Source: Escherichia phage vB_EcoM_JNE01. Taken from it: 64,000 bases of DNA. Under the pieces are notes generated by a model. It did not search any database, was not told the origin of the DNA, and worked only from the letters and a program-made list of their open reading frames with translations. The stretch lies in the sequence record OR670491. One strand, given 5' to 3'. This document shows, piece after piece, positions 22,076 to 33,597 of this stretch; position 1 is the first letter of the stretch; each line of letters opens with the position of its first letter. A program made the translations under genes and the position numbers.

Positions 22076-22315
22076 ATGGCTAGTACTAAAACTTACAACG
22101 GACACAAAAACAAAACTCATTGGAATGTAAGCCTTTGGATTAATAACGGTGAGTCATTGTATCGGCTTGCTCAAAGTTGCATCGCACAAAGTAGAACTAA
22201 AGATATTGCTGCGGAATGTATGTACCGCAGATTAAAAGCCAACGGTACTACTACAACGCCGGACGGCTTTAAGTATAGCACTACTGCGATCCGTGCTGCA
22301 ATGGTTGGAATGTAA
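22076..22315 (+). CDS. hypothetical early protein (paralogue of 20035..20274)
   Basis: start MASTKTY after promoter/hairpin module; conserved block shared with 20035..20274. Confidence 0.6.
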   Translation: MASTKTYNGHKNKTHWNVSLWINNGESLYRLAQSCIAQSRTKDIAAECMYRRLKANGTTTTPDGFKYSTTAIRAAMVGM

Positions 22316-22372
22316 TATTCAGTACTGAGATAATGGCGGGTAATAGTTCCCGCCTTTACTGAGGGTTATCTA

Positions 22373-22633
22373 ATGAGTAAAGTAATTAGCTATACAGCAC
22401 TAAGCAAGACATTATCTATTAGCCAGTGCACCGATGGTTATTGGCTATTTGATGAAACGCGTGGCATGAATTTAGCGATGCGTGCAAAAACTGCTGAGGC
22501 GGCGTATATTCAAGCACTGGAATACTACCAGGAACGTTTAAAGGAAGTAGAAGAAGATTATAAAAGCCTCAAAGCGAAAGTAGATCATTTCGTCGGTCAA
22601 TTCAACGAGGAAGACGACGACAAACAATATTGA
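22373..22633 (+). CDS. hypothetical early protein
   Basis: ORF from track; upstream hairpin gcgggtaatagttcccgc. Confidence 0.5.
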   Translation: MSKVISYTALSKTLSISQCTDGYWLFDETRGMNLAMRAKTAEAAYIQALEYYQERLKEVEEDYKSLKAKVDHFVGQFNEEDDDKQY

Positions 22634-22719
22634 AAAAGTACTTGCAATTAGTTTTCAGTACTGTATAATGGTTTACATCAAAGGGAGAAATGGTTCTCCC
22701 TGGTAATGAGGAAAATAAA

Positions 22720-22941
22720 ATGGCTAATATCACTACTCTTTCCCAACTGGAAGCACTGGTGAAATCTATGCGGGAACATGCCGACAAAATCGGCGTACAA
22801 GATCCAGCCGTTTGCTTCTGCGACGAATTGAATGATGATACCCTGGTAATAGCAGAAGTCCAGGACGTTTCTAACTATTCCTCGCGTTACACTGGCGGCG
22901 TAGCAAATAAAGGCGACTTCTGTTTATACCTTACAAAATAA
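22720..22941 (+). CDS. hypothetical early protein
   Basis: start MANITT after promoter + gggagaaatggttctccc hairpin; track ORF starts upstream at 22690. Confidence 0.55.
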   Translation: MANITTLSQLEALVKSMREHADKIGVQDPAVCFCDELNDDTLVIAEVQDVSNYSSRYTGGVANKGDFCLYLTK

Positions 22942-22944
22942 CAA

Positions 22945-23046
22945 CGCGGGGAGATAATAACTCCCCGTTACTTTTTCAGTACTGAATCATTTAATAGACG
23001 GATCTCGGCACCCGGTGGGTTAGTGACTGTTTCGTCTTGATGTAGT
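22945..23046 (-). ncRNA. candidate minus-strand small RNA with CCCACCGGGTGC box, ending at a bidirectional hairpin
   Basis: minus-strand promoter at 23048-23076; no ORF; hairpin ggggag-ataataa-ctcccc at about 22947-22968 also terminates plus-strand gene 22720..22941. Confidence 0.3.
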
Positions 23047-23047
23047 A

Positions 23048-23076
23048 ATTATGCCAGTACTGGATGCACTTGTCAA
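23048..23076 (-). promoter_or_regulatory. minus-strand promoter (TTGACA-N17-CATAAT with upstream TG)
   Basis: reverse complement reads ttgacaagtgcatccagtactggcataat. Confidence 0.5.
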
Positions 23077-23184
23077 CAACTATTTTTCAAATACTTTTTA
23101 TTAAAATACTTGCAATTAGTTTTTAAACGCGTATAATGTTTTGCATAGGGGGAGCGGTTCCCCTGGTAACTAAGGAATAATAAA

Positions 23185-23421
23185 ATGCTTGAACAAATCA
23201 AATCAACGTCTGCGAATGTAACGGGAACGGTATCACACTTTACTAGTGATGAATCGCGTGGTGTTCCTTATTGTGCTGTACATGTAAACACTGATGGCAA
23301 CTACTGGTTTACGGTTTACGGATCATATTCATTTGGACGGCCAGGGCATCAAAAAATTCTGGATAAAGTACAACCAACGGGTAAAAATATCACTGCCGAA
23401 ATGTTTTATAAAAAATCATAA
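23185..23421 (+). CDS. hypothetical early protein
   Basis: ORF from track, preceded by promoter + ggggagcggttcccc hairpin. Confidence 0.55.
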   Translation: MLEQIKSTSANVTGTVSHFTSDESRGVPYCAVHVNTDGNYWFTVYGSYSFGRPGHQKILDKVQPTGKNITAEMFYKKS

Positions 23422-23505
23422 AGTACTTGCAATTAGTTTTTAGTACTGTATAATATTTTACATCGCAAGGGGAAACGGTTTCCCCTGGTAACTAAGGATA
23501 ATCAA

Positions 23506-23805
23506 ATGAAAGTTGCAATCATCGCCCTGGCTTTATCTGTATCGTCTTTCGCTGTTAACGCTTCCGTTGATGTACCGCGTGAAAAATTCATTCAGTGCAC
23601 TGTTGCAATGACTAACGAGGAAACGGCTGAGATTGTTACCAAATCCCTGGAACTGGCCCCTGCAATGTTTGCTAATGGCCCGTACCATGAAGAAGATGAT
23701 CAGGGTAGCACGACCATCTATTACGATGCAAAAAGTAAACGCGGTTCAGTTACTGTAATGGATACTGAGAAAGTTACATTCACGGGAGTAATTAATTGTT
23801 TTTAA
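23506..23805 (+). CDS. secreted or periplasmic hypothetical protein (N-terminal signal peptide)
   Basis: MKVAIIALALSVSSFAVNA-SVD: basic start, hydrophobic core, AxA-type cleavage motif. Confidence 0.6.
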   Translation: MKVAIIALALSVSSFAVNASVDVPREKFIQCTVAMTNEETAEIVTKSLELAPAMFANGPYHEEDDQGSTTIYYDAKSKRGSVTVMDTEKVTFTGVINCF

Positions 23806-23823
23806 TGAAGTACTGAATCATAA

Positions 23824-23850
23824 GCCCACTATAAGAAGTGGGCTTTTTTT
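23824..23850 (+). terminator. rho-independent terminator
   Basis: gcccact-ataagaa-gtgggc followed by T7. Confidence 0.65.
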
Positions 23851-24035
23851 ATTGTAGTACTGAATACTTTAAAAATAGTTTTGAAATAGTAGTTGACATT
23901 ACCAGGGAAAGGCGTAGAATGTATTACATCAGGACGGGGAACACTAAGTAGACCGCCAGTAAGTCGAACGAAAAACTGGACACGACCTGGAAACTTTGAT
24001 AAACTAACTTACACTTTAATTGAGGAATTAAAAAA

Positions 24036-24515
24036 ATGGCAAATGTAAAATCATTCTTTAAAGCACTGGTATCTTCTGACGTATCTATCGCCGCTGAATT
24101 GCTGGCTGACCTGGATAATGATACCATGAAAGCAGTACGCAATAATTTTAATATGGCGTACAGTGCAGCAAAAGAACTGCAAGCCAAAAAGGTAGCAGAA
24201 CTGGAAGCGGCAAAGGCAGAACGTGAAGCAGAACTGCAAGCAACAATCGAAAGCATCCAGGCGGCGGTAAGTGGATTGGATATCGAGATCGTAACCGATA
24301 TGGCACATAAAGCCCTAGCTGCAAAATACGGTGAAGTAAAAGCGGTTAAAGAAAAGAAATGGATTCAGGACCGCGTTAACGTAGTACTTGACAACGGGGA
24401 AGAATATCTTATTCCTGTACGCGGTAACTGCATTGCCGTAGTACTGGACGCGATTAACTCCAGTGGTATGACACGCGAGGAATGGATCGAAGCTCATCGC
24501 AAAGTTGAAGCATAA
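24036..24515 (+). CDS. hypothetical protein with predicted coiled-coil segment
   Basis: 159-aa ORF; alanine/glutamate/lysine-rich heptad-like stretch AKELQAKKVAELEAAKAEREAELQA. Confidence 0.55.
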   Translation: MANVKSFFKALVSSDVSIAAELLADLDNDTMKAVRNNFNMAYSAAKELQAKKVAELEAAKAEREAELQATIESIQAAVSGLDIEIVTDMAHKALAAKYGEVKAVKEKKWIQDRVNVVLDNGEEYLIPVRGNCIAVVLDAINSSGMTREEWIEAHRKVEA

Positions 24516-24536
24516 CAATAAAAGTACTGAATCACT

Positions 24537-24563
24537 AGCCCACCTTAAACGGTGGGCTTTTTT
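24537..24563 (+). terminator. rho-independent terminator
   Basis: agcccacc-ttaaac-ggtgggct followed by T6. Confidence 0.65.
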
Positions 24564-24790
24564 GTGTTTATCGTTTACCAGGCCACCAGCACCGCCTAGA
24601 AACGATTCTAACGCATTAAACTGATTATCTGATGCATTGCCCTAGCTGGTGGCGTTAAGGCTGTAAGAACGCGATTGAGAGCGTTTAAAGTATTTTGCAA
24701 AAAGTAATAAAAAGTACTTGCACGATTAAGAGATTAGCGTATAATTAATTACATCAAGGCAAGACACCTTAACTAACTGAGGATATAAAG

Positions 24791-24943
24791 ATGAATACTT
24801 ATGACCTGGATTGTTTTACTTTACAAGTAATGTCAGTATGCAGTAAGAAAGATTGGTCATCAAAGGAATTTAAAGCAGTTATCGCGTGTGCAAAACACGG
24901 CAAGACTATCAATGAAACGGCATCAATCATTGATAAACTTTAA
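24791..24943 (+). CDS. small hypothetical protein (50 aa, below ORF-track cutoff)
   Basis: hand-translated ORF downstream of promoter aaaagtacttgcac...gcgtataat with GAGGA RBS. Confidence 0.4.
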   Translation: MNTYDLDCFTLQVMSVCSKKDWSSKEFKAVIACAKHGKTINETASIIDKL

Positions 24944-24951
24944 AAAATAGT

Positions 24952-24980
24952 TTGACAATAGTTTTAAGTACTGGCATAAT
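24952..24980 (+). promoter_or_regulatory. early promoter (TTGACA-N17-CATAAT with upstream TG)
   Basis: ttgacaatagttttaagtactggcataat. Confidence 0.6.
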
Positions 24981-25012
24981 ACATACATCAACTACTGAAT
25001 AGGAATTAAAAA

Positions 25013-25240
25013 ATGGCTATTATCATTACTCGCGTATCTGGTACTACTGGCAACGAACAAGTAGTTGCAGTCATTACCAACAAGGAAGGTGCGGAATTGC
25101 AAAATGCAATGAATACCTGGGCCGTTAATGAGTTCGGTCAGTGGGCAAGTGTAGCATACATTGAAACCTATCAAGTGCCGTCGATTAGTTTAACTGATTT
25201 GGGCGTTGAGCGTATCCTTTGCCTGGATGAATTAAATTAA
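25013..25240 (+). CDS. hypothetical early protein
   Basis: ORF from track; AGGAA RBS. Confidence 0.55.
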   Translation: MAIIITRVSGTTGNEQVVAVITNKEGAELQNAMNTWAVNEFGQWASVAYIETYQVPSISLTDLGVERILCLDELN

Positions 25241-25325
25241 AAAAGTACTTGCAAAGTAAATCGAATAAAGTATAATACATTACATCAAGGGGAGAAATGG
25301 TTCTCCCCACTACAAGGAAACTAAA

Positions 25326-25469
25326 ATGAAAACTTGTCAATGTGGTCATAAATCTATTACGGGTTTTAAGCGGGGCGTTGCTCTTTGCCAGTACCATTAT
25401 AATTTACAAGTATGGGGTAAAGAATGGGCCGACCAGGTGGAAGCAGCAAAGAAAGCAAAAAGTAAGTAA
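25326..25469 (+). CDS. small cysteine-containing hypothetical protein (47 aa)
   Basis: hand-translated ORF after promoter + ggggagaaatggttctcccc hairpin; CQCGH...CQYH pattern suggests possible metal binding. Confidence 0.4.
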   Translation: MKTCQCGHKSITGFKRGVALCQYHYNLQVWGKEWADQVEAAKKAKSK

Positions 25470-25557
25470 AATATTATCACAGTACTATTGACATAGTTTG
25501 ATAGTACTGGCATAATAGATTTTATCAAGACAACATATTAATTTAAGGAATACAAAA

Positions 25558-25881
25558 ATGGCTAAAACTATCATTAACACCGTTTCCCTGGCTGCAATCC
25601 GTGCAATCAATGTTGACGGTAAACGTTGGACTGATACATATGGCAATACTTATCATTCTTGTCATGTAAGCGTTGAACTGGATAACGGTTTGAATGATCT
25701 GGCGGTTGAATCATTTACTTATGGCTATGAAGATGCATATCAACAAACGGCGTTAGATCTATTAAAGGAATCAGTAGACGGGCTTAATACTGATGAAACC
25801 TCCCTTACTCGTTTGTGCAATGATCTTAATATCCCGTTGCATTGTACTGTACAGAATGTTAAACGCAAAAAAGATCTTTAA
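25558..25881 (+). CDS. hypothetical early protein (paralogue of 32407..32730)
   Basis: shares RWTD..GNTYHSC.VS...TFTYGY...VKRKKD with 32407..32730. Confidence 0.6.
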   Translation: MAKTIINTVSLAAIRAINVDGKRWTDTYGNTYHSCHVSVELDNGLNDLAVESFTYGYEDAYQQTALDLLKESVDGLNTDETSLTRLCNDLNIPLHCTVQNVKRKKDL

Positions 25882-25961
25882 TTAGCTTTACTTTATGCAG
25901 ATACTTTGATATAGTGTCTGCATAGGGGAAAGAAATTAAATTAACTTAAGAGGATCGTATA

Positions 25962-26231
25962 ATGAAAAATATCAGTACTTTAATCGATACAGGTACTCAT
26001 GTTCGTCGGTCTATGGTTGCAACCAGTACTACAAAACAAGTACCAAGCGGTTATCTTGTATTTGTGCACGATGGTAAACTCCTGGAACGTTCAATCAATT
26101 TTGATGTTAAAAACAATTGCCGTTTTATTATCTTTAAGCGTGAGCAATATAAAATTGATTTACCAGCAAAGCCCATAAGCGGGGCGTACAACGTGCAATC
26201 ATTGTTTGAACGTCAACCATACACCTATTAA
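25962..26231 (+). CDS. hypothetical early protein
   Basis: ORF from track with AAGAGGA RBS. Confidence 0.5.
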   Translation: MKNISTLIDTGTHVRRSMVATSTTKQVPSGYLVFVHDGKLLERSINFDVKNNCRFIIFKREQYKIDLPAKPISGAYNVQSLFERQPYTY

Positions 26232-26282
26232 TCAAAACATCGTTAGCGGTCGATTTAGGCCGCGTATATTGGGGATTATACC

Positions 26283-26555
26283 ATGAACGTTAATCAAGTA
26301 CTGAATGAGATCGAAAGCATCATTAAACCAATGAAACGCATTGATGCTATGTTAACACCGGAAGAATGCCGCCTTTATGAGCGTTACAGCGTCGAACAAG
26401 TCCAGGCAATGGCTATGGCTACCCCAGCCGTTAAACCGCCTGAGAATGCGTTACAGGACGTTACAGGGGATTATATCATCAATCCAGTACTAGGGAAGAT
26501 GGCTGCAATCACCGAAGATCAACAAGATTACTTAAGTCAGTACTTAAAAGGTTAA
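26283..26555 (+). CDS. hypothetical early protein
   Basis: ORF from track. Confidence 0.45.
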   Translation: MNVNQVLNEIESIIKPMKRIDAMLTPEECRLYERYSVEQVQAMAMATPAVKPPENALQDVTGDYIINPVLGKMAAITEDQQDYLSQYLKG

Positions 26556-26560
26556 TTAAT

Positions 26561-26770
26561 ATGCTTACTGTACAGGATAAGATCGACATCTTAAAGGTTA
26601 ATATGTATGTGATTGATGCAGTACCTGGTAAAGTATTTGCATACGATGACAGTACTGTAAGCGATTTCTACTATAGCCAGGACGTGGGGGATCTTTCTGT
26701 ACAGTCGGTTATTGAAAACGTAGTTAATGCAGCGTATGAGCATTTACTTTCAAATAGTACTTGCAATTAG
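26561..26770 (+). CDS. hypothetical early protein
   Basis: ORF from track, closely following previous gene. Confidence 0.45.
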   Translation: MLTVQDKIDILKVNMYVIDAVPGKVFAYDDSTVSDFYYSQDVGDLSVQSVIENVVNAAYEHLLSNSTCN

Positions 26771-26839
26771 TTTTTAAACGCGTATAATGTTTTACATGAA
26801 GGGGAGAAATGATTCTCCCCACTAATTAAGGAATATGAA

Positions 26840-26986
26840 ATGAAAGCATCAAAAAAGAGTAATACTAAGAAAGCACGTTCAACCTTAGATGGGGTATTCC
26901 CTTTACGTTTCGTTGATGAAGTGGTGTCCTACCCGCCGGGCCTTACTCCTGAGATGGTAGAAAGTTTGCGTAAATCTAAAAAATAG
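26840..26986 (+). CDS. small basic hypothetical protein (48 aa)
   Basis: hand-translated ORF after promoter + ggggagaaatgattctcccc hairpin and AAGGAA RBS. Confidence 0.4.
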   Translation: MKASKKSNTKKARSTLDGVFPLRFVDEVVSYPPGLTPEMVESLRKSKK

Positions 26987-27067
26987 TACTTGCAATTAGT
27001 TTTTAGTACTGTATAATAGTTTACATGAAGGGGAGAAATGATTCTCCCCAATAACAGGAGAATCAAA

Positions 27068-27220
27068 ATGAAACAATACAACGCTCGGTTTGATGTTACT
27101 ATCGGTAACGGCAAAGGTCAATTCTCTTTCAGTACTCGCAAAAGTTATACAGAAAACTTCCTGCGTAATTGTGCACTGACCGCCGCTCAAATTAAACATT
27201 ACTTTCAGGCTAAAAAATGA
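27068..27220 (+). CDS. small hypothetical protein
   Basis: start MKQYNAR after promoter/hairpin and AGGAG RBS; track ORF begins upstream at 27038. Confidence 0.5.
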   Translation: MKQYNARFDVTIGNGKGQFSFSTRKSYTENFLRNCALTAAQIKHYFQAKK

Positions 27221-27306
27221 AAACATTAGCTTACTATAGTTCGGCCCTGGTCGGTGCATTGATCGCGGCGTTGTTAGTAACCTATCTATTCTTTATGGTG
27301 ATTTAA
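27217..27306 (+). CDS. small hydrophobic peptide (29 aa), possible membrane peptide
   Basis: hand-translated ORF MKTLAYYSSALVGALIAALLVTYLFFMVI; ATGA-coupled on both sides. Confidence 0.3.
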   Translation: MKTLAYYSSALVGALIAALLVTYLFFMVI

Positions 27307-27450
27307 ATGAATCCAACAGGTTTAAACTATAAAAGTTGTTCGGCGTTTACGAAAGCAAATAAAGCGAATGCACGTAAAGCGAAAGTACAAGAATACATCA
27401 AGCAAGGCATGACGCGAAAGGCGGCGATTCTAAAAGCTAAAAATAAATGA
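27307..27450 (+). CDS. small lysine-rich basic protein (47 aa)
   Basis: hand-translated ORF coupled to upstream peptide. Confidence 0.3.
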   Translation: MNPTGLNYKSCSAFTKANKANARKAKVQEYIKQGMTRKAAILKAKNK

Positions 27451-27560
27451 AAAAAGTGGTTGACTCCGGTCAGCCATTTTGCTATTATATATTCATTGAG
27501 AGATAGCTCACTAGCCCACAGGGTGCATAAGTGTATCTATTATATGAGTATTGAGTACTG
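27451..27560 (+). promoter_or_regulatory. repeat module: hairpin with embedded TTGACT -35, TATTAT -10, CCCACAGGGTGC box
   Basis: one of four full copies (also about 31468-31575, 34741-34850, 37487-37625). Confidence 0.5.
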
Positions 27561-27671
27561 AAAACTATTTTAAAAGTATTTGTAGAAAGTACTTGCAAAC
27601 TATCTCAATAAGCGTATAATGTTTTACATCGAAAGGGGAAACGGTTTCCCCTGATAATAAGGAAACAAATC

Positions 27672-28013
27672 ATGACTATCTCAATTGCTCAATCTAACTT
27701 TGAAAACGAAATCATCGCCCAGGCACTGCGTTTAAATGATGGTCGGGCCGAAATTAATTACGGTTTCAATTCAGGCGGTTGTGAAAAATATCAGTACTTT
27801 GTAACGGCTGATGGCGGTGTCCTGGGTATCAATACAGTTATTGTAAACATCCAAAAAATTAATTTCAATGATCCAGACGATAGCCAGTTTTACATCACTG
27901 GCGTAGACGTGAACTATGAGGATGACTCACTAACTGATGATCACACTGGTGAGAAGTTAGAGAGTGCATACGGTGAAGATGATTATCAGTCAGTACCGGA
28001 AGATTTTGAATAA
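27672..28013 (+). CDS. hypothetical acidic protein
   Basis: ORF from track after promoter + aggggaaacggtttcccct hairpin; acidic C-terminal third. Confidence 0.55.
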   Translation: MTISIAQSNFENEIIAQALRLNDGRAEINYGFNSGGCEKYQYFVTADGGVLGINTVIVNIQKINFNDPDDSQFYITGVDVNYEDDSLTDDHTGEKLESAYGEDDYQSVPEDFE

Positions 28014-28027
28014 TATTAAAAAAATAG

Positions 28028-28086
28028 TTTGACAATAGATTATAGTACTGTATAATAGTTTACATCAAGGGGAGAAAAACTTCTCC
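28028..28086 (+). promoter_or_regulatory. early promoter (TTGACA-N16-TATAAT) + 5' stem-loop (ggggagaaaaacttctcccc)
   Basis: read directly. Confidence 0.6.
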
Positions 28087-28110
28087 CCACTAACAGAGAG
28101 AGAAAACAAA

Positions 28111-28323
28111 ATGGCTAATATCTGCACTGTACTGAAAAATGCAAAACAAGTTTTATTTTCTGATCACGATCATTTAAACAAGGATATTACTGGCGTTCGG
28201 AATATCAAAGATGTAAAAAGTGTTATGGGTATCTATTGCAATATGAAACGTGTTGGAACGTTCGGCGACAAAGTACTATACCAGGCAGGGGATTACAATT
28301 TTACACTGACTATCATTAACTAA
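28111..28323 (+). CDS. hypothetical early protein
   Basis: ORF from track. Confidence 0.55.
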   Translation: MANICTVLKNAKQVLFSDHDHLNKDITGVRNIKDVKSVMGIYCNMKRVGTFGDKVLYQAGDYNFTLTIIN

Positions 28324-28415
28324 AAATATATTACCAGTACTATTAAATCTATTGACAACGTTTGATAGTACTGACATAATAACTTTTATCAACTACACTA
28401 CTAAGGAATTAAAAA

Positions 28416-28595
28416 ATGGCTATCATCGCAAAAACTGAAATCGTTGGTCTGGATTCTATCATCATGACGTTTGAAGATCAAAAAGGTATGTATGTAGTTT
28501 CATATGGTGATTATGTTCGGGAGTATGAAACGGTAGACGAAGCCTTTGAAAGTTATATTCGCCAGGTGAATAAAGCATACGACGACTACCGCTAA
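28416..28595 (+). CDS. small hypothetical protein (59 aa)
   Basis: hand-translated ORF after ttgacaacgtttgatagtactgacataat promoter and AAGGAA RBS. Confidence 0.45.
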   Translation: MAIIAKTEIVGLDSIIMTFEDQKGMYVVSYGDYVREYETVDEAFESYIRQVNKAYDDYR

Positions 28596-28685
28596 AATAT
28601 ATTACCAGTGCTATTGACAAAGTTTGATAGTACTGTATAATAAGTTTTATAAACAGTAGTTAACTTAACCTAAGAGAGAAATAAA

Positions 28686-28829
28686 ATGATCGCACTGGAT
28701 TCATTCATCGACGCAGTACTGGCAAAAACTGGCGAGGATCTGACCGCAGAACAATACGCGATGATCGAGCAATGTCAGCAAAACGGTAAATCGGTGAAAG
28801 ATACTGTTAAGATTATCCGCAAGATGTAA
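28686..28829 (+). CDS. small hypothetical protein (47 aa)
   Basis: hand-translated ORF after ttgacaaagtttgatagtactgtataat promoter. Confidence 0.45.
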   Translation: MIALDSFIDAVLAKTGEDLTAEQYAMIEQCQQNGKSVKDTVKIIRKM

Positions 28830-28836
28830 GATTATA

Positions 28837-28866
28837 GCCCACTGGTTAACGCTGGTGGGCTTTAAT
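28837..28866 (+). terminator. hairpin terminator containing a Chi octamer
   Basis: gcccac-tggttaacgctg-gtgggc then TTTAATCCTTT; GCTGGTGG lies in the loop/3' arm. Confidence 0.45.
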
Positions 28867-28928
28867 CCTTTACCCTATACAATGCCAGTACTCAACCGTT
28901 TATCTCGTTAGAATGCGTTACAGGACGT

Positions 28929-29132
28929 TTGACAATGATTAGCATGAAATCAGTACAAAAACAAATAGAAACATTATCAAAAATTAAACGTAAACAGTAC
29001 TCGTTAGAATATACAATCAATGGTAACTATCATCTAATGAAAGAGAATAATTTTATCGTCATTGATGAATCATTGCAAGTTATTAGTATAGTACTGAAAG
29101 CATTAATCAATGACAGAAAAAAATTAAAATAA
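28929..29132 (+). CDS. hypothetical protein (uncertain start)
   Basis: track ORF with TTG start and no clear RBS. Confidence 0.3.
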   Translation: MTMISMKSVQKQIETLSKIKRKQYSLEYTINGNYHLMKENNFIVIDESLQVISIVLKALINDRKKLK

Positions 29133-29136
29133 TCTA

Positions 29137-29165
29137 TTGACAATATCCTCCAGTACTGGCATAAT
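29137..29165 (+). promoter_or_regulatory. promoter (TTGACA-N17-CATAAT) heading a long leader with CCCATAGGGTGC box
   Basis: ttgacaatatcctccagtactggcataat; about 300-nt leader before gene 29462. Confidence 0.55.
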
Positions 29166-29221
29166 ACTTACATCAAGACGAGAACGTCGCTAACCCATAG
29201 GGTGCACAAATGTAACTATAT

Positions 29222-29300
29222 AATATCGATCAATAAATGATCAAAAAAGTACTGGATCAATTTAGCATAAGGCGTATAATTCTGATCAATTCTTGATCAA
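29222..29300. promoter_or_regulatory. cluster of five GATC sites (tgatcaa-type repeats) around a TATAAT element upstream of the TraR/DksA-like gene
   Basis: GATC at about 29228, 29239, 29255, 29284, 29295, as cgatcaat / tgatcaaa / ggatcaat / tgatcaat / tgatcaaa. Confidence 0.5.
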
Positions 29301-29461
29301 AGGCAATATACGCAGTTGAATTTATATAGACAGTACAAAGGCGTTACTATCCGTGGTAATGCTGGTGGATATGTAGTATCATATGGTTTGAATAAGATAA
29401 ACACTAGTAGTATTATTGTAGCATTACAGTACTATAGTATTTTTATAATGAGGTTAAAATA

Positions 29462-29719
29462 ATGGCAGTAGGATACGCGAAAGACGGGGCCGAACAAGAC
29501 GAGATTCACGCAGTGATTCAGGCCGCCGTTAACCACGCTAGAAAGCAAATTAACGCACAAAGAGAATCACTGGTACATTGCCTCGACTGCGGCGATAAAA
29601 TCCCTGAGAATCGACGCCAGGCCGTTATAGGGTGCATGTATTGTATTACTTGCCAGGAGGATCATGATAGTACTTTTAAAAGAGATCCGCGTAATTGTTG
29701 GCATAGATCTATGAGATAA
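29462..29719 (+). CDS. TraR/DksA-family C4 zinc-finger protein (putative RNA polymerase-binding regulator)
   Basis: CLDCGDKIPENRRQAVIGCMYCITCQ matches the TraR/DksA zinc-finger pattern CxxC...IPxxR...CxxCQ; 85 aa; GAGG RBS. Confidence 0.65.
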   Translation: MAVGYAKDGAEQDEIHAVIQAAVNHARKQINAQRESLVHCLDCGDKIPENRRQAVIGCMYCITCQEDHDSTFKRDPRNCWHRSMR

Positions 29720-29725
29720 AAAGTA

Positions 29726-29753
29726 TTGACAGTACTGAAAGATAGTGTATAAT
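29726..29753 (+). promoter_or_regulatory. early promoter (TTGACA-N16-TATAAT)
   Basis: ttgacagtactgaaagatagtgtataat. Confidence 0.6.
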
Positions 29754-29782
29754 GTTTTATATCTTAACTGAGGATAGTAATC

Positions 29783-30139
29783 ATGGGAATACAACATATC
29801 ACGCGTACTACTGACAATGGCGAGATCACTGGTTATCAGGTACAGGGCAAAGTAGCACAATTGCAGTACTGGTTTGTTAAACGTGGAATCATTGCACCGG
29901 ATCTTGATTATGACCGTGTAGCGTTTATTGATTCTCTTTATGTTGATCCTGATAGTCGGGGCAATGGTGAAGGTAACGAATTAATGAATGCCTTTATTGA
30001 TGCCGCCGATGATTCAGATTGTATCATCTTAGAATGCGATACGGGAGAAGATAACGCCTTTAATCTTAAAGAATGGTACGAAGGTTTCGGATTCGAGGTA
30101 CTGATCGATAGTGAATATCCTATCATGATTTTATCATAG
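29783..30139 (+). CDS. hypothetical early protein
   Basis: ORF from track with GAGGA RBS. Confidence 0.55.
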   Translation: MGIQHITRTTDNGEITGYQVQGKVAQLQYWFVKRGIIAPDLDYDRVAFIDSLYVDPDSRGNGEGNELMNAFIDAADDSDCIILECDTGEDNAFNLKEWYEGFGFEVLIDSEYPIMILS

Positions 30140-30217
30140 TACTTGCATTTAGTTTTCAGTACTGTTATAGTACTTGCATCAAGGGGAAACATCTTCCCCT
30201 ACTAAGAGGAAATAAAA

Positions 30218-30406
30218 ATGGAAAACTTATCAAGTATTTTAGTACAAGATGATTTCGGTAATCCTGGAAGTGCTATCATTGTTCGGGGCAATAAAGCAAC
30301 GTTTGTTATTGCTGGTGGACCCGTACAGCGTAGCATTAAAAATAATGCTGTTACCATTAATAATGTACGCTATCGCTTAGATAAAGAATTAATTCATAAA
30401 CTGTAA
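30218..30406 (+). CDS. small hypothetical protein
   Basis: ORF after promoter + aggggaaacatcttcccct hairpin. Confidence 0.5.
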   Translation: MENLSSILVQDDFGNPGSAIIVRGNKATFVIAGGPVQRSIKNNAVTINNVRYRLDKELIHKL

Positions 30407-30433
30407 TATTAATTTAATAGAGGATAACAATAA

Positions 30434-30757
30434 ATGTACATTCATACTACTATCACAAAGGAAGTCCGTTGCCAGTTCGAAAGTATTCCGGGCGTATGTT
30501 TCATCACTGGTACGTTTTCCCCTGGTGATCGTGATAATCCAGTACTGTTACAATTACGCCATCCATCATGGGATAAAGCATTTGATCTACCGTTGAATGA
30601 ATTCGCAACTACTGCTGAAAAGTACATTAAAAATATTCGCGAGAATGATCGACTATTCATTAATGCTTTTAGTGATGCCGCGTTAAGTGAGATCCATGCT
30701 GTATTGGTTGCAATCATGGAATCAATGGAGAAAACTATATTCAAACAAGGTGAATAA
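30434..30757 (+). CDS. hypothetical early protein
   Basis: ORF from track with GAGGA RBS. Confidence 0.55.
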   Translation: MYIHTTITKEVRCQFESIPGVCFITGTFSPGDRDNPVLLQLRHPSWDKAFDLPLNEFATTAEKYIKNIRENDRLFINAFSDAALSEIHAVLVAIMESMEKTIFKQGE

Positions 30758-30763
30758 AAACTA

Positions 30764-30822
30764 TTGACAATGCAATCCAGTACTGTATAATAGTTTACAT
30801 GAAGGAGAGAAATGATTCTCCC
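30764..30822 (+). promoter_or_regulatory. early promoter (TTGACA-N16-TATAAT) + 5' stem-loop (gagagaaatgattctc)
   Basis: read directly. Confidence 0.6.
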
Positions 30823-30840
30823 CACTAAGAGGAAAGAAAA

Positions 30841-31053
30841 ATGCAAGGTCAACTAATCGTTCGTAAATGGTCTGATACTAACGAAAAACCGTGGGATGTA
30901 CAATACATCGCCCCAAATGGTGAATCCAGATATCAACCAGGTGTAACGCATAGTACTGAGCAATTCGCCGCCGCTCATCGCGAACGTCTGTTACAATCAA
31001 TGCAGCAAGGTTCCGGTGAAAAATTCATTCAGGATCATTGGCTGAAAGATTAA
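30841..31053 (+). CDS. hypothetical early protein
   Basis: ORF from track. Confidence 0.55.
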   Translation: MQGQLIVRKWSDTNEKPWDVQYIAPNGESRYQPGVTHSTEQFAAAHRERLLQSMQQGSGEKFIQDHWLKD

Positions 31054-31139
31054 AAAGTACTTGCACAGTACTGAATAAAGTGTATAATGTTTTATATCGG
31101 AAGGGGAATAGTTCCCCTCCGAACAAAGAGGAAAGTATA

Positions 31140-31313
31140 ATGGTCCAGGTAGAATTAACAGTACTGAAAGATCTGTTTTATCGGATTGGTACTACTGGCG
31201 AATATCCGAAGGGTGATAATGCAAAACTTTACGTATCACTCGACTTATGGCAACGCGAACAATTAGCAACGGCCTGGCGTAAAGGCAAAGCAGATAGCGA
31301 GGTGAAAGCATGA
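31140..31313 (+). CDS. small hypothetical protein
   Basis: track ORF 31038..31313 begins with TTG inside promoter; ATG MVQVELT after AGAGGAAAG RBS at 31140. Confidence 0.5.
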   Translation: MVQVELTVLKDLFYRIGTTGEYPKGDNAKLYVSLDLWQREQLATAWRKGKADSEVKA

Positions 31314-31459
31314 AAGAATTCTTATTTGAAGTAGTGTTTCAAGGTGTCGGTAATAACCAACTGATTCGATCAAGTGGTTATAATGTTAACCAGGCATGGA
31401 ATAACATTAAACAAATGTACCCGAACGCTATCACATATCGCAACCCGAAAGAAGTTTAA
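31310..31459 (+). CDS. small hypothetical protein (49 aa)
   Basis: hand-translated ORF, ATGA-coupled to upstream gene. Confidence 0.35.
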   Translation: MKEFLFEVVFQGVGNNQLIRSSGYNVNQAWNNIKQMYPNAITYRNPKEV

Positions 31460-31467
31460 AAATAATT

Positions 31468-31575
31468 GAAAAAGGGATTGACTCCGGTCAGTCCCTTTGT
31501 TATTATATACGCATAGAAACAAATTAGCCCACCGGGTGCATAAATGTATCTATTGTTTGCTGGTGGCTAGTACTG
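31468..31575 (+). promoter_or_regulatory. repeat module: hairpin gggattgactccggtcagtccc with embedded -35, TATTAT -10, CCCACCGGGTGC box, Chi octamer
   Basis: copy of the 27451-27560 module; GCTGGTGG at about 31559. Confidence 0.5.
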
Positions 31576-31631
31576 AAAACTATTTTTAAAAAGTACTTGC
31601 ATTGTACTTAGAATCAAGTATAATGTTTTAC

Positions 31632-31760
31632 ATCAGGACGGGGAACGAAATAAGTAACCCCGTTAAGTAGTCCAGGAGTAAGACATACGAAAAACTCCCC
31701 TGATAAAATAGTTTGACAATAGAAAGTAAACGAGTATAATACTTACATCAACCACTGATA
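31632..31760 (+). promoter_or_regulatory. conserved about 90-nt leader between tandem promoters (copy of 21228-21345)
   Basis: caggacggggaacgaaataagtaaccccgttaagtagtccaggagtaagacatacgaaaaactcccctgataaaatagtttgacaa. Confidence 0.5.
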
Positions 31761-31773
31761 AGGAAACATAAAA

Positions 31774-32049
31774 ATGCGGATTCTACTGACAGCTAACGAA
31801 ATCGAACAAGTACTGACTACTAATCTGGAACAATGGAAACGTGAAGCAGATATCCAGGCGGTTCAATGCCTTAACGATAAGTTAACGCCAGATGACTTAA
31901 GCACGATTGTTGATCCACAATTTTATGAAGATATTCACGACACGTCTTTAAGCGTCGAGGATGTACTTGATAAGCACTACATTGATACTGATTTACATGT
32001 TTACGGTCGTAAAAACTTTATCACTATTCACGACATTTACAATACTTAA
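31774..32049 (+). CDS. hypothetical early protein
   Basis: ORF from track. Confidence 0.55.
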   Translation: MRILLTANEIEQVLTTNLEQWKREADIQAVQCLNDKLTPDDLSTIVDPQFYEDIHDTSLSVEDVLDKHYIDTDLHVYGRKNFITIHDIYNT

Positions 32050-32052
32050 GTA

Positions 32053-32110
32053 TTGACAAAGTATCTTAGTACTGTATAATAGTTTACATCAAGGGGGGGA
32101 ATGGTTCCCC
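32053..32110 (+). promoter_or_regulatory. early promoter (TTGACA-N16-TATAAT) + 5' stem-loop; module duplicated at 32322-32380
   Basis: ttgacaaagtatcttagtactgtataatagtttacatcaaggggg...ggttcccctcc; duplicate differs only in G-run length. Confidence 0.6.
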
Positions 32111-32135
32111 TCCTAACTAAAAGAGAGAAATAAAA

Positions 32136-32318
32136 ATGGCTAAGTGCACTATCTGTAATAAAGAAATAGTATTAGTTCCAAGTGCCCGTGAACGTGCCGC
32201 TCGGTTCGGTGGCAAAGCGTCAGACTATACAAAAATGTTTACTACCCATACAGCTTGCCAGGTAGCAAAACGTTCACAAGAAAGCGTAGAATTAATGCGT
32301 AAACTTTCCAAAAAATAA
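32136..32318 (+). CDS. small cysteine-containing hypothetical protein
   Basis: ORF from track; CTICNK...HTACQ pattern. Confidence 0.5.
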   Translation: MAKCTICNKEIVLVPSARERAARFGGKASDYTKMFTTHTACQVAKRSQESVELMRKLSKK

Positions 32319-32321
32319 GTA

Positions 32322-32380
32322 TTGACAAAGTATCTTAGTACTGTATAATAGTTTACATCAAGGGGGGGGGAATGGTTCCC
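32322..32380 (+). promoter_or_regulatory. early promoter + 5' stem-loop (duplicate of 32053-32110)
   Basis: read directly. Confidence 0.6.
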
Positions 32381-32406
32381 CTCCTAACAAAGAGAGAGAA
32401 ATAAAA

Positions 32407-32730
32407 ATGGCTATGATCCTTACCCAGAAAGTAGAACTGAAAATTGTAACCTCCTTTGACATTAAAGTTAATCGGTGGACTGATAGCCACGGCAATACTT
32501 ACCACTCCTGCTACGTGTCCGCATTGATTGGTGATCGCTGGGAAGACCTGGGACACGAAACCTTTACATACGGTTACGGCACACAAGGCGAGTACACGGG
32601 TTTAGAAATCATTAAGGAAACTGTAATAGGTTTCAACCCGAAAGAGAAAGTACTACACAGAATTGAGAAAGAGATCAACAAAGAAATTACAGTTCGCTAC
32701 TACGATGTAAAACGTAAGAAAGACATGTAA
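32407..32730 (+). CDS. hypothetical early protein (paralogue of 25558..25881)
   Basis: conserved block shared with 25558..25881. Confidence 0.6.
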   Translation: MAMILTQKVELKIVTSFDIKVNRWTDSHGNTYHSCYVSALIGDRWEDLGHETFTYGYGTQGEYTGLEIIKETVIGFNPKEKVLHRIEKEINKEITVRYYDVKRKKDM

Positions 32731-32829
32731 TAGAATCCATTTAAAGTACTATTTGACATTGCCCAGATAGTACTTTATAATAGACTCTAACTTGTAGTAC
32801 TAATTAACTTAACTAATAGGATGTACACC

Positions 32830-33225
32830 ATGATTACTAAATTCTTCGCTACCCGTGAACAAGCTCGCATCGTTGCCCGTGAGGAAGGTGAAACATTTAA
32901 AGACATGGGTAAAGATTCTCCTACTGGTAAACGCTGGGCGGTACAGTTCAAAGAGATCTCTGATATTGTGAATTCACCTGAGCCTGTACTTACAGCAGCA
33001 GAACTAAAGCAAGCTCAAGAACTGGCTGAAGTACTGAACGCTCAAGATGACTTCTTGAAAGGTTCTGATATTGAAGTTACAGTTAACGCAAATGCATGGA
33101 CTCACGCGGATCACCTGGCAAACCTTAAGCGTCCAAGTGAACTGATTCGTAACCAGAAAGAGATCCGTCATGACCGTAAAGGAAACCGTGTTACCGTATA
33201 CAGTAAACGCCGCCAGGTTATCTAA
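32830..33225 (+). CDS. hypothetical early protein (paralogue of 20361..20627)
   Basis: conserved FATREQAR / GKRWA / RKGNRVTVY blocks; start may instead be 32821. Confidence 0.5.
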   Translation: MITKFFATREQARIVAREEGETFKDMGKDSPTGKRWAVQFKEISDIVNSPEPVLTAAELKQAQELAEVLNAQDDFLKGSDIEVTVNANAWTHADHLANLKRPSELIRNQKEIRHDRKGNRVTVYSKRRQVI

Positions 33226-33289
33226 TACCTTGCAGTACTAACCAACACGGCGGGAAGACAGTTCCCGCCTTTTTTATAGGACAAACAAA

Positions 33290-33544
33290 ATGATTAAGGT
33301 TCAACTATATAAAGATAACATCTTACGGGTACACTATAAAGCACCTCAGAGAATCATCACAAAGGCCGTACAGCTTGCTAATGAGTTTATTAATGGTAAC
33401 CTATTACCTAGGAAGTTAAGCAACGGGAAACTGCGTGTAATCGACGTGGACACTAACAACAGGATAGTAATCGAGAACACAGGAAAGATAAACCTTTATG
33501 AGCATCAACAATACAATAAGAAAATAAAACTAATATCACGTTGA
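33290..33544 (+). CDS. hypothetical early protein
   Basis: ORF from track. Confidence 0.5.
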   Translation: MIKVQLYKDNILRVHYKAPQRIITKAVQLANEFINGNLLPRKLSNGKLRVIDVDTNNRIVIENTGKINLYEHQQYNKKIKLISR

Positions 33545-33597
33545 CAGTACTCAATTGTTTTAGTACTATGTACACATACCAACACGGGAGAAACAAA

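Follow-up and report, generated by a model that had tools for sequence, protein, structure and literature searches.

The left terminal repeat of phage T5 carries non-coding repeats, namely Repeat Regions 1-3, the inverted repeats IRB/IRB′ and a palC-palD region at the start of the injection-stop (iss) region (Wang et al. 2005, via Davison; bioRxiv 10.1101/866236). In the accessible portions of the T5 literature, these repeats are treated as a T5-family feature whose role is unexplained, and they are not mentioned there for phages outside the T5-like group. We analysed a short repeat in a stretch of 64,000 nucleotides (the window) of Escherichia phage vB_EcoM_JNE01 (OR670491), an Asteriusvirus (121Q/PBECO4-like) jumbo coliphage. 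The core of this repeat also occurs in T5 (NC_005859), where direct reading places it at 9350(+), 6289(–) and 5280(+), positions that fall within the repeat regions already described for its first-step-transfer DNA. Judging by their coordinates, the copies at 5280 and 6289 would correspond to IRB/IRB′.

The physical genome end maps to about position 17757 of the window, and a direct terminal repeat of ∼21 kb runs onward from there. The corresponding repeat measures 20,993 bp in fEgEco12 (PMC13070987) and 21,525 bp in vB_Ec-M-J. It carries early genes and is dense in early promoter-gene-terminator cassettes, and many promoter cassettes of the early region have been exchanged.

The exact repeat and its surroundings

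The initial annotation had claimed an exact repeat of about 20 nt shared by a coding and an intergenic region. By direct reading, the 20-mer AGAATGCGTTACAGGACGTT is indeed identical at 26443-26462, within the CDS 26283-26555, and at 28910-28929, in an intergenic region; the position given for the second copy (28911-28929) was right, whereas the first (26448-26466) had been placed 4 nt too far to the right. Exactly two occurrences of the 19-mer GAATGCGTTACAGGACGTT were found on the + strand (26444-26462 and 28911-28929) and none elsewhere. In 100 dinucleotide shuffles with up to three mismatches permitted, the mean was 0.03 matches and none of the shuffles reached two, demonstrating that the repeat is real. 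A sequence near 19246-19262 that had been described as related proved to be a full third copy, CGTTAGAATGCGTCTGAGGCCGTT, at 19246-19269. The TTGACA hexamer into which the intergenic copy had been said to run is present at 28929-28934, but it is not a conserved promoter element, since it reads TTAACA in 121Q, SHEFM2K and UB and a promoter scan paired no –10 region with it.

We aligned the 30-nt flanks of both 20-mers, anchored on the repeat, and they scored above shuffled sequences on the left (p=0.004) and on the right (p=0.019); homology therefore extends outward. This alignment had been suggested with the initial annotation as a test for a longer diverged duplication. Because this weak homology persists in the flanks (∼55-60% identity versus 100% in the 20-nt core), the exact repeat is a perfectly kept core within a diverged duplication of ∼80 nt, and the two exact copies derive from duplication or capture of about 80 nt. 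The earlier suggestion of a recombination footprint thus gains direct support from the flank homology and from three mosaic or deletion junctions that abut the CDS copy. The coordinates of all features are given in Table 1.

Table 1. Copies of the motif and neighboring features, in window coordinates
Feature	Position	Strand	Remarks
Third full copy	19242-19274	+	CGTTAGAATGCGTCTGAGGCCGTTTTAT; R1 32.7 bits (training-set member)
Weak partial copy	24601-24620	–	TTTAATGCGTTAGAATCGTT...; R1 8.4 bits, E=0.18; membership uncertain
Fourth, degenerate copy	24663-24690	+	CTGTAAGAACGCGATTGAGAGCGTTTAAAG; R1 16 bits, E=7e-4
CDS carrying a copy	26283-26555	+	90 aa, hypothetical; g018 in fEgEco12
Mosaic patch bordering the CDS copy on the left	26401-26441	+	alignment A1 and sliding identity
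Diverged duplication, CDS-copy side	26413-26492	+	pairs with about 28880-28958; flank alignment
CDS copy	26439-26467	+	CCTGAGAATGCGTTACAGGACGTT; R1 23 bits, E=4e-6 (outside training set)
Intrinsic-terminator-like hairpin of upstream gene	28836-28862	+	agcccactgg-ttaacg-ctggtgggct + TTT, read from sequence
Intergenic copy	28903-28933	+	R1 34.9 bits, E=7e-10 (training-set member)
Small gene g028	28935-29132	+	65 aa, phrog_36844

The gene carrying the CDS copy matches no PHROG family. Within it, the motif is translated in frame as P-E-N-A-L-Q-D-V, its –10-like box is weakened to GAGAAT, and in relatives it varies mostly at synonymous sites (alignment A1: GAGAACGCAGTACAGGACGTT in ph0011, GAGAACGCATCACAGGACGTG in SHEFM2K). 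The three junctions, identified in relatives by alignment and sliding identity, are independent of each other: the mosaic patch to the left, with 30-55% identity to SHEFM2K and 121Q compared to 85-100% in most of the upstream gene; a replaced C-terminus in TH47, starting at about 26470 beside the copy; and a deletion in 121Q that begins within the motif itself. Based on the coding-like drift and the position at these breakpoints, the CDS copy is probably a passenger.

The intergenic core CGTTAGAATGCGTTACAGGACGTT spans 28906-28929, with TAGAAT at 28909-28914 and AGGA at 28922-28925, the latter 9 nt ahead of the ATG (28935) of the next gene. Of seven Asteriusvirus relatives, six have the identical core, and ph0011 differs by one substitution. 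Since the core is no more conserved in these relatives than its 98%-identical flanks, selection on it is not demonstrable within the genus. No mosaic junction was found at 28906, where all relatives compared are 98% identical. A gap of 44 nt separates the motif from the upstream hairpin, which holds a Chi site (28851-28858). For g028, we found neither a canonical early promoter cassette nor any other promoter, and the motif fills that slot. In the divergent relative L056, the g028 orthologue is preceded by a TTGATT-N16-TATAAT promoter and lacks the motif.

A dispersed motif family in early and terminal-repeat DNA

The repeat is not a two-copy event of one genome but a member of a dispersed motif family, and the two 20-mers are the conserved cores of two members of this family of cis-elements of ∼25-30 bp. 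The core reads CGTTAGAATGCG-N4-AGGNCGTT(T), and the family consensus is CGTTAGAATGCG-(A/T)TNN-AGG(A/C/G)CGTT(T), with a length of about 25-30 bp. It is built from two conserved blocks (12 nt and about 9-12 nt) at a fixed spacing of 4 nt and contains three CG-anchored units phased at 10 bp. For searching, we trained a sequence model (R1) on copies selected by BLAST, including those at 28903 and 19242 but leaving out the CDS copy; E-values at BLAST-selected loci are partly circular. At E<1e-3, R1 recovered four window copies; these span 19.2-28.9 kb, entirely within the terminal repeat. A further, doubtful copy on the reverse strand is oriented divergently from the copy at 24663. The copy at 19242 lies about 1.49 kb inward of the physical left end, in a non-coding terminal-repeat leader of ∼1.7 kb, and vB_Ec-M-J, fEgEco12 and 121Q have it at the corresponding position. 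A met-box-like array and Chi sites are also present in the Asteriusvirus terminal leader. The copy at 24663, which has a Chi site 10 nt upstream and a canonical early promoter ∼30 nt downstream, is intact as CGTTAGAATGCGATTGAGAGCGTT in fEgEco12, 121Q and vB_Ec-M-J.

A BLAST search with the intergenic copy returned matches in Kuravirus (E=4e-5), T5-like phages (E=6e-3 and weaker) and phi92-like phages (24/25 nt). In T5, the copy at 9350 matches the window core at 21 of 24 positions and scores 35.4 bits with R1, while the copies at 6289(–) and 5280(+) score 22.9 and 13.2 bits, respectively. T5-like phages carry three copies in the left terminal repeat, one of them opening the injection-stop region. 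Here, the motif leads a cluster consisting of motif, LexA-like palindrome and DnaA boxes on both arms of a large inverted repeat; the DnaA boxes of this region are described in bioRxiv 10.1101/866236. All T5-like sequences sampled from IMG/VR have the core at the same iss-region position, and within the 4-nt block, the single position examined is the main variable site of a conserved stretch of ∼130 nt. Retention of the core with variation mainly at this site reflects long-term purifying selection.

The RaK2-like jumbo phages RaK2 and Muenster carry the motif in the terminal repeat (in Muenster 2 kb inside a repeat of 20,030 bp), in both cases antisense to the flanking genes. By direct reading, it is also present in the early region of Kuravirus and in phi92. 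rV5-like phages, a Machinavirus and small MobQ plasmids carry degenerate copies; in the plasmids, a 24-nt identical stretch lies within the relaxase gene. Some copies are clearly decaying, namely window 24663, pangalan, pSal-SNUABM-04 and T5 6289, which has TAGAAA. Taken together, virulent enterobacterial phages that are unrelated to one another (T5-like, RaK2-like, Kuravirus and phi92-like) carry what is by its sequence the same element in their early or terminal-repeat DNA, and in at least three unrelated families the copies are confined to such DNA. A BLAST search of 5,426 E. coli genomes returned only small MobQ plasmids and one weak chromosomal match, and across 185,579 species genomes (596 Gb bacterial) the motif had two matches compared to about 17 expected by chance according to our own calculation. 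No phage protein is common to the window and the sampled neighborhoods of T5, Kuravirus and phi92.

Candidate readings of the element

We tentatively propose, with a probability of about 0.4, that the element is a promoter-core-like signal in duplex DNA that would be read by the host transcription machinery. Its layout would comprise a –10-like TAGAAT, a GCG discriminator, a variable 4-nt block at the putative transcription start and a conserved start-proximal block, AGGNCGTTT. It would occupy a "promoter slot" 40-55 nt past intrinsic terminators, and at 28906 it could supply the –10 region, a leader of ∼14 nt and the AGGA ribosome-binding site for g028. Such an element may act as a weak, –35-independent promoter or, alternatively, by holding or pausing σ70-RNA polymerase. 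TAGAAT (5/6 to TATAAT) is present in the copies at 28906, 19246 and T5 9350 as well as in Kuravirus and phi92, and RaK2 has TACAAT. Searching with TAGAATGCGTTACA at up to three mismatches recovered the early promoters of the phage itself (TATAATGTTTTACA), with 26 matches compared to 9 expected, and three canonical promoters continue with ...ACATCAGGACG, similar to ACAGGACG of the motif. A hairpin followed by 40-55 nt and then the motif is the layout in Asteriusvirus, T5, Kuravirus and phi92. That g028 has no other promoter, while its L056 orthologue has a canonical one in this place, supports the promoter-like reading. The T5 Repeat-Region-2 copies and the Kuravirus copy also have TTACC(C/T) in common, 17-18 nt ahead of TAGAAT, which might serve as a –35 region (3/6). 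A canonical promoter cassette used as control gave cross-family BLAST matches too, indicating that host-polymerase signals do show such conservation.

Several observations count against a promoter. By eye, the window copies show no –35 hexamer better than 3/6 at 16-18 nt and no extended –10 TG, and 28906 was not called by the promoter scan. The T5 iss copy and the copy at 19246 have no downstream gene nearby, the orientation in RaK2 and Muenster is antisense, and the 12 nt beyond the putative start are more conserved than usual in promoters.

Occurrence in either orientation relative to genes would suit a binding site for a sequence-specific protein other than RNA polymerase, a reading that we consider possible but rather doubtful. 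The lack of a shared phage protein among the neighborhoods points to a host rather than a phage factor, and the likeliest candidate would be one conserved across Enterobacterales that is recruited or titrated by the first-entering DNA, as the T5 iss appears to do with its DnaA boxes and LexA-box-like palindrome. Two conserved blocks at fixed 4-nt spacing, CG-anchored units phased at 10 bp, conservation of the motif of the intergenic copy across unrelated phage families, its place at the head of the T5-like cluster and the met-box-like array and Chi sites of the Asteriusvirus terminal leader are all in line with such a site. But ∼40 bits of near-invariant sequence is far above the usual convergent binding site, and no native target is known, as the E. 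coli chromosome lacks the motif at the sensitivity of a BLAST search. Scans for LexA, DnaA, IHF and Chi around the motif-bearing regions found nothing at the motif, and we know of no consensus for Fis, σ54, Cra, PurR, DeoR, Tus/Ter or invertase sites that fits it. The junctions touching the CDS copy would instead be expected of a functionless recombination scar or hitch-hiker, which either illegitimate or short-patch homologous recombination would have carried between co-infecting phages and from cassette to cassette within the hyper-plastic early region. Copies at cassette boundaries beside terminators, the decaying copies, the 24-nt identity inside the plasmid relaxase gene and the swapped promoter cassettes of the early region agree with this. 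We nevertheless regard a mere scar as unlikely: the core position is invariant in all sampled IMG/VR T5-like sequences, the 20-nt core is 100% identical although its flanks are at about 55-60%, and in at least three unrelated families the element is restricted to early or terminal-repeat DNA.

At the level of RNA, the motif could be read as a tiny upstream ORF of six codons, ATG-CGN-NNN-AGR-NCG-TTT-(TAG/TAA), encoding M-R-x-R-x-F. Translation of this ORF, with its rare Arg codons, R-x-R and an SD-like AGGNCG just before UUU-UAG, would control the gene downstream or tie up components of the translation machinery. The variable 4-nt block would then cover codon 3 and the wobble position of codon 2, several differences between related copies are silent (CGA/CGT in three families, AGG/AGA, CTG/TTG, TAT/TAC, GTG/GTA), and the stop is kept as TAG/TAA, in the window overlapping the g028 start (ATGATTAG). 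GTG, TTG and ATG, each followed by ATT, lie at equal distance in Kuravirus, T5 Repeat-Region-2 and Asteriusvirus, respectively. What makes translation quite improbable is that neither a Shine-Dalgarno sequence nor a convincing leaderless start precedes the ATG in any copy, that the 7 nt upstream of it are as conserved as the ORF, that the ATG is lost in T5 6289 (AAG) and window 24663 (ACG), and that the frame differs from the annotated one in the CDS copy. A rough count gave ∼8 silent versus 9-10 non-silent changes, which is not significant after six-frame correction. An element acting as RNA itself, be it a small structured ncRNA, a repeat or antitoxin mimic, or an antisense to a host RNA, is weakly refuted and would be very surprising. 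Phages do carry RNA mimics, and the motif is short, highly conserved, found in either orientation and has a –10-like box at its 5′ edge. But Rfam gave no match, either for the whole window at the gathering score or for the locus at E≤10, no tRNA or tmRNA was found, folding energies of 14 copies on both strands cannot be told apart from those of shuffles (z near 0) with no shared helix, and complementarity to 16S, 23S and 5S rRNA is no better than for a shuffle. The motif also lacks the hairpin of the type I-F CRISPR repeat, which we take it to resemble.

Implications and relation to known systems

As far as this genome is concerned, the repeat is of minor importance and adds another trace of cassette shuffling to its hyper-plastic early region. 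The ∼25-bp core common to several families suggests a common host-side reader exploited by these phages. We speculate that it represents a previously unrecognised "early-DNA" signal of ∼28 bp in the first-entering DNA of T5-like phages, Asteriusvirus, Alcyoneusvirus, Kuravirus and phi92-like phages, which might be kept because one conserved host component, or the ribosome on the M-R-x-R-x-F mini-ORF, reads it in the first minutes; as a whole, this idea is doubtful. If it is true, the host component would be either RNA polymerase working in a special mode or a DNA-binding factor, and in T5 the element would contribute to the function of the injection-stop and pre-early control region, which has long lacked an explanation. 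The element is also a short, mutable experimental target in a tractable model, T5.

Among known systems, boundary or linker sequences are found at module junctions of lambdoid mosaic phages and are common within one recombining group. Like the motif, they are short, conserved and located at cassette borders with mosaic junctions adjoining, but the motif is common to families without other nucleotide similarity and is invariant in T5-like phages. σ70-dependent promoter-proximal pause elements and the elemental pause consensus G(–10)Y(–1)G(+1) are resembled by the –10-like TAGAAT of the non-template strand with CG dinucleotides behind it at intervals of exactly 10 nt, and by an orientation co-directional with upstream transcription in most families; in contrast to these, copies are hundreds of bases or more from promoters, and the orientation is reversed in RaK2-like phages. 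Leader peptides with R-x-R, such as ErmDL (MRLR), resemble the ATG-CGN-NNN-AGR of most copies, but the motif has no Shine-Dalgarno sequence, has lost the start in two copies and shows no stable or shared (alternative-hairpin) structure around any copy.

The σ70-dependent early cassettes of the phage itself consist of TTGACA/TTGCAA-16-TATAAT-GTTTTACAT, a 5′ stem-loop and an SD sequence, with a AAAAAGTAC box upstream of the –35 region. They are comparable to the mobile promoter-early-stem-loop (PeSL) cassettes that Arbiol et al. reportedly described in T4-type phages in 2010. Both kinds of element occupy the post-terminator slot, continue from a –10-like hexamer into G..TTACA (in some promoters followed by CAGGACG) and show cross-family similarity. 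The motif differs in having no –35 hexamer, no AAAAAGTAC box and no 5′ stem-loop, and it is far rarer, with 4-5 copies versus about 40. The early-cassette repeat families D1-D6 exclude 28906, 26439 and 19246; only the –10 region and the early-transcribed segment align.

In comparison with T5, our scan found no DnaA boxes or LexA-like palindrome beside the window copies. In both phages, however, the copies are located in a long, first-entering direct terminal repeat and follow terminator hairpins. The T5 repeats that would correspond to IRB/IRB′ are now tied to elements beyond the T5 family, a link absent from the accessible portions of the T5 literature.

Two exact copies in coding and intergenic DNA

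The exact repeat of about 20 nt that the initial annotation described in coding and intergenic DNA is real. Its 19-mer occurs exactly twice in the window, and no further matches were found there with up to three mismatches permitted. Reading of the sequence showed one further identical base, giving the 20-mer AGAATGCGTTACAGGACGTT; the position originally assigned to the second copy was correct, whereas the first was off by about 4 nt, with the true start at 26443/26444. In 100 dinucleotide shuffles, the mean was 0.03 matches and not one shuffle reached two, which rules out a chance match as the origin of the repeat. Alignment of the 30 nt on each side of the two copies also outscores shuffles (p=0.004 and 0.019), and the pair therefore represents the core of a longer, diverged duplication of ~80 nt. 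As a local repeat, the finding is ordinary.

The first copy (CDS copy) lies in an open reading frame of 90 amino acids, whose product is annotated as hypothetical in relatives. In nine Asteriusvirus genomes, it varies as coding DNA does: ph0011, UB and SHEFM2K show 3, 1 and 4 differences, respectively, mostly at third positions of E-N-A-x-Q-D-V. Three independent rearrangements among relatives touch this copy. The intergenic copy is located 44 nt past a terminator-like hairpin, with 5 nt between its end and the ATG (28935) of the 65-amino acid gene g028. It is part of a block 98% identical in 7/7 genomes compared, with the sole core substitution in ph0011; within the genus, selection on the intergenic copy is inseparable from that on the flanking DNA. 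In the clade of the window, the 20/20 identity reflects either retention of an ancestral motif or short-patch conversion. Retention is favoured because phage pSal-SNUABM-04 carries a left flank of the CDS type (GTTAAAC-GCCTGAGAA...).

As initially noted, the repeat adjoins a TTGACA at 28929. Its reading as a –35 element was rejected, since it is not conserved in relatives and the promoter scan paired no –10 region with it. A second CTCGTTAGAAT, identical over 11 nt with the motif's left edge, lies 96 nt downstream within the coding sequence of g028; it is probably coincidental, because its G varies silently (TCG/TCA/TCC) among relatives.

A motif family within the terminal repeat

The repeat is part of a motif composed of CGTTAGAATGCG and AGGNCGTT(T)(TAG) separated by a fixed 4-base variable spacer, with three CG dinucleotides at a spacing of exactly 10 bp. 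A mismatch search with the 24-nt core revealed a third copy at 19246. A fourth was found in fEgEco12, 121Q and vB_Ec-M-J, and its counterpart in the window, at 24663, is degenerate. Model R1, a sequence-only motif model built from 12 diverse copies and scored unfiltered across the whole window, matched these four loci, each at E<1e-3, values that are partly circular on loci already picked by BLAST. Beyond these and one doubtful fragment, the model found nothing convincing in the 64 kb.

Coordinates of the motif copies and neighbouring features in the window
Feature	Position	Strand	Detail
Exact 19-mer	26444-26462; 28911-28929	+	
Exact 20-mer	26443-26462; 28910-28929		
Model R1 match, intergenic copy	28903-28933		34.9 bits
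Model R1 match, third copy	19242-19274		32.7 bits
Model R1 match, CDS copy	26439-26467		23 bits; outside training set
Model R1 match, fourth copy	24663-24690		16 bits
Model R1, doubtful fragment	24601-24617	reverse	
Reading frame holding the CDS copy	26283-26555		
Rearrangement at CDS copy	26401-26441		30-55%-identity patch (SHEFM2K, 121Q)
Rearrangement at CDS copy	from ~26470		C-terminus replaced (TH47)
Rearrangement at CDS copy	mid-motif to next gene		deletion (121Q)
Terminator-like hairpin	28836-28862		
Second CTCGTTAGAAT	28999-29010		within g028
Early promoter cassettes	18109-38127		~40, near-identical, one for each small gene
Second repeated unit	27438; 31458; 34733; 37483		GGGATTGACTCCGGTCAGTCCC...TATTATAT...CCCACAGGGTGCA
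Chi sites GCTGGTGG	18247-37618	11 on +	13 sites
Met-box-like array	18561-18672		fourteen tandem 8-bp units
Tandem ~66-bp copies	19280-19470		three copies of gattcagtactgaatgatagtactgaataatagtactcctatatagaaagatagttcccctggatt
Tandem ~1.25-kb units	3264-13453	-	nine units

Over the region, identity to the Asteriusvirus jumbo coliphages fEgEco12, PBECO4, 121Q, G17 and others is 91-98%. Both fEgEco12 and vB_Ec-M-J have records that start at the point equivalent to ~17757 of the window, and their direct terminal repeats measure 20,993 bp (by PhageTerm and restriction digests; PMC13070987) and 21,525 bp, respectively. The window from ~17757 is therefore terminal repeat, and every window copy of the motif lies inside it. 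BLAST places two copies per record in collapsed assemblies and four where both repeats are present, which suggests that the remainder of the ~350-kb genome carries none.

The terminal repeat opens with ~1.7 kb of non-coding leader; dozens of small early genes come next, each with a near-consensus σ70 promoter cassette and 5′ stem-loop, usually also a terminator. The cassettes read AAAAAGTAC-TTGCAA/TTGACA-16-TATAAT-GTTTTACAT, followed by a GC-rich 5′ stem-loop and a Shine-Dalgarno sequence. The palindrome CAGTACTG occurs 61 times in the whole window (1.24 expected), most densely at 17.7-38.7 kb; many copies are found in intergenic DNA and in early-promoter spacers immediately 5′ of TATAAT, and it looks like an operator or otherwise selected site. 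Chi, expected 0.54 times, is confined to the terminal repeat, in an orientation that would stop RecBCD coming in from the right. Several Chi sites lie in terminator hairpins or up to 60 nt upstream of motif copies; Chi is simply over-represented over the whole terminal repeat. Three tandem copies of a ~66-bp unit separate the motif copy at 19246 from the first early promoter, and immediately outside the terminal repeat is a paralogous gene array, whose units have conserved 5′ ends (start regions …AAAAGGTAACAT…) and upstream GCCAGTACTTGAGTACTGGC palindromes.

About 800-930 bp in from the physical left genome end, we observed tandem units (AGACGGCT, four times AAACGGCT, AAACGTCT, GGATGGCT, GGACGTTT and others) with an average identity of ~5.9/8 to the MetJ met-box consensus AGACGTCT. 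A single register fits, other registers reaching 1-2/8, and the best run of ten units scores 6.1/8, whereas shuffles do not exceed 3.8. Both vB_Ec-M-J (6.1) and fEgEco12 (5.8) retain the array, which may titrate MetJ or else be a packaging or end repeat.

Copies in unrelated phages and a plasmid match

When 97 nt spanning the intergenic copy were used as a BLAST query, 299 phage records were hit, 34 of them from Asteriusvirus. The others included Kuravirus podoviruses, with 43/52 nt (E=4e-5), many T5-like siphoviruses, at E=6e-3 and weaker, phi92-like myoviruses, with 24/25 nt, as well as RaK2-like jumbo phages and rV5-like phages. Cross-family E-values are, Kuravirus excepted, individually modest; the matches from all groups meet at one ~25-nt core. 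The survey across phages combined BLAST and exact-pattern scans.

In T5 (NC_005859), the copy CGTTAGAATGCGATCTAGGACGTT at 9350(+) is located 54 nt beyond the terminator that ends the last pre-early gene read rightward, and opens the annotated injection-stop region; two more copies are present, one inverted at 6289(-) and the other at 5280(+). According to the preprint of Davison (bioRxiv 10.1101/866236), the positions 9350, 6289 and 5280 fall within Repeat Regions 3, 2 and 1, respectively, and the latter two copies are probably the IRB′/IRB described there. The copy at 9350 is followed by DnaA boxes and a palindrome, TACTGTATAAATATACAGTA, at 9412-9431 (also in phage SB9, ~1572-1588), which fits the LexA-box pattern CTGT-N8-ACAG and is kept, adjoining DnaA boxes, in the T5-like phages sampled. 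It is probably the palD of Davison; the word LexA is absent from that preprint.

In Kuravirus CHD5UKE1, the early genes run leftward (PMC8948821), and the motif copy comes after the terminator that closes them. Downstream of this copy, at 1700-2400, are three TTGACA-type promoters, each followed by an rrn-boxA-like GCTCTTTAA(A/C/T)AAT, with a fourth such site just upstream of these promoters; one of the sites is an exact GCTCTTTAACAA. Host Nus-type antitermination is thereby suggested for the Kuravirus early region, and the many tiny ORFs annotated there look spurious. In phi92, the motif lies past a terminator between convergent genes. RaK2 and Muenster carry it between two early genes and antisense to them, in the case of Muenster 2 kb into a 20,030-bp terminal repeat. 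Degenerate copies are found within a CDS of the rV5-like phage pangalan and spanning a stop codon in Machinavirus pSal-SNUABM-04.

Outside phages, ~4.1-kb MobQ plasmids of Klebsiella, E. coli, Raoultella and Enterobacter share 24 identical nt inside the relaxase gene (cAGAATGCGTTACAGGACGTTTTAG, 698-724 of E. coli plasmid NZ_CP081788), read as QNALQDV in the same frame as ENALQDV of the phage CDS. This match may be due to chance (BLAST E about 0.5) or represent a shared DNA element. BLAST against E. coli chromosomes did not find the motif, one weak match apart, and a pattern of 18 specified bases hit two contigs in 596 Gb of bacterial genomes, compared with ~17 calculated by chance. An origin as a copy of host chromosomal sequence was rejected, none being present in E. 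coli or 185,579 species genomes. Exact scans of IMG/VR recovered only T5-like, 121Q, RaK2 and phi92-like contigs.

Possible function and relation to known elements

Our leading but tentative reading, with a probability of roughly 0.35-0.4, is that the motif would be a promoter core or RNA polymerase signal read by the transcription machinery, its variable block lying where transcription would begin. For this speaks that the motif has 5/6 of a –10 hexamer, and that TAGAATGCGTTACA with up to three mismatches recovers the phage's own early promoters (26 matches, 9 expected), some of which run on into CAGGACG as the motif does. In four families, the motif is located 40-55 nt past terminator hairpins, the usual place of the next promoter. 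Gene g028 has no other promoter, and the orthologue of a divergent relative carries a canonical TTGATT-N16-TATAAT there; moreover, the T5 Repeat-Region-2 and Kuravirus copies have a common TTACC(C/T) 17-18 nt upstream. Cross-family BLAST matches are likewise obtained with a control promoter cassette, so that host-polymerase signals can look like the motif. Against a promoter, the scan found no usable –35 or TG at the window copies, two copies lack a downstream gene, RaK2-like phages carry the motif in reversed orientation, and the downstream block is unusually conserved.

The initial annotation had offered a protein-binding site or a recombination footprint. A binding site or signal is a plausible candidate; we consider a site for some other host protein rather unlikely, though the strongest of the rivals. 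The footprint has direct evidence in the flank homology and the junctions at the CDS copy; that the motif as a whole is a recombination scar devoid of function seems quite improbable to us. Still more doubtful is a six-codon mini-ORF (M-R-x-R-x-F), which shows silent wobble changes and a conserved TAG/TAA stop but has no ribosome-binding site, and a role as RNA is hardly credible.

Several further candidates were tried and rejected. When 14 copies were folded on either strand, z-scores stayed near 0 and no common helix emerged that would indicate an RNA or single-stranded DNA hairpin, duplex energies with 16S, 23S and 5S rRNA were no better than shuffles, and no tRNA, tmRNA or known RNA family (Rfam) was matched. 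The motif does not move with a mobile gene, g028 homologues being restricted to Asteriusvirus and the divergent orthologue lacking it. A site for a protein common to these phages was rejected too: the window has no protein in common with the T5 first-step-transfer region or with the sampled Kuravirus, phi92 and Machinavirus stretches. DnaA, LexA, IHF and Chi scans around motif-bearing regions gave nothing at the motif. To our knowledge, σ54, σ32, σE, Fis, Cra, PurR, DeoR, ArgR, the OmpR/ArcA/CpxR direct repeats, Tus/Ter, Hin/Gin sites, dif, attC, CsrA sites, the type I-F CRISPR repeat and ToxI all misfit at critical positions, and a literature search by sequence string returned no relevant paper.

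Functionally, the motif would work most like a stripped-down form of the phage's own early promoter cassette, without its defining –35 box and 5′ stem-loop. There is likewise a resemblance to the "boundary sequences" of mosaic phages, yet the motif, unlike these, is common to families without other nucleotide similarity. The closest described elements are the non-coding repeats of the T5 terminal repeat, of which we found no mention outside T5-like phages in the literature accessible to us, and which have the same sequence at an equivalent location. This cross-family early-region motif is of moderate interest, as a concrete handle on the T5 injection-stop/pre-early control region.
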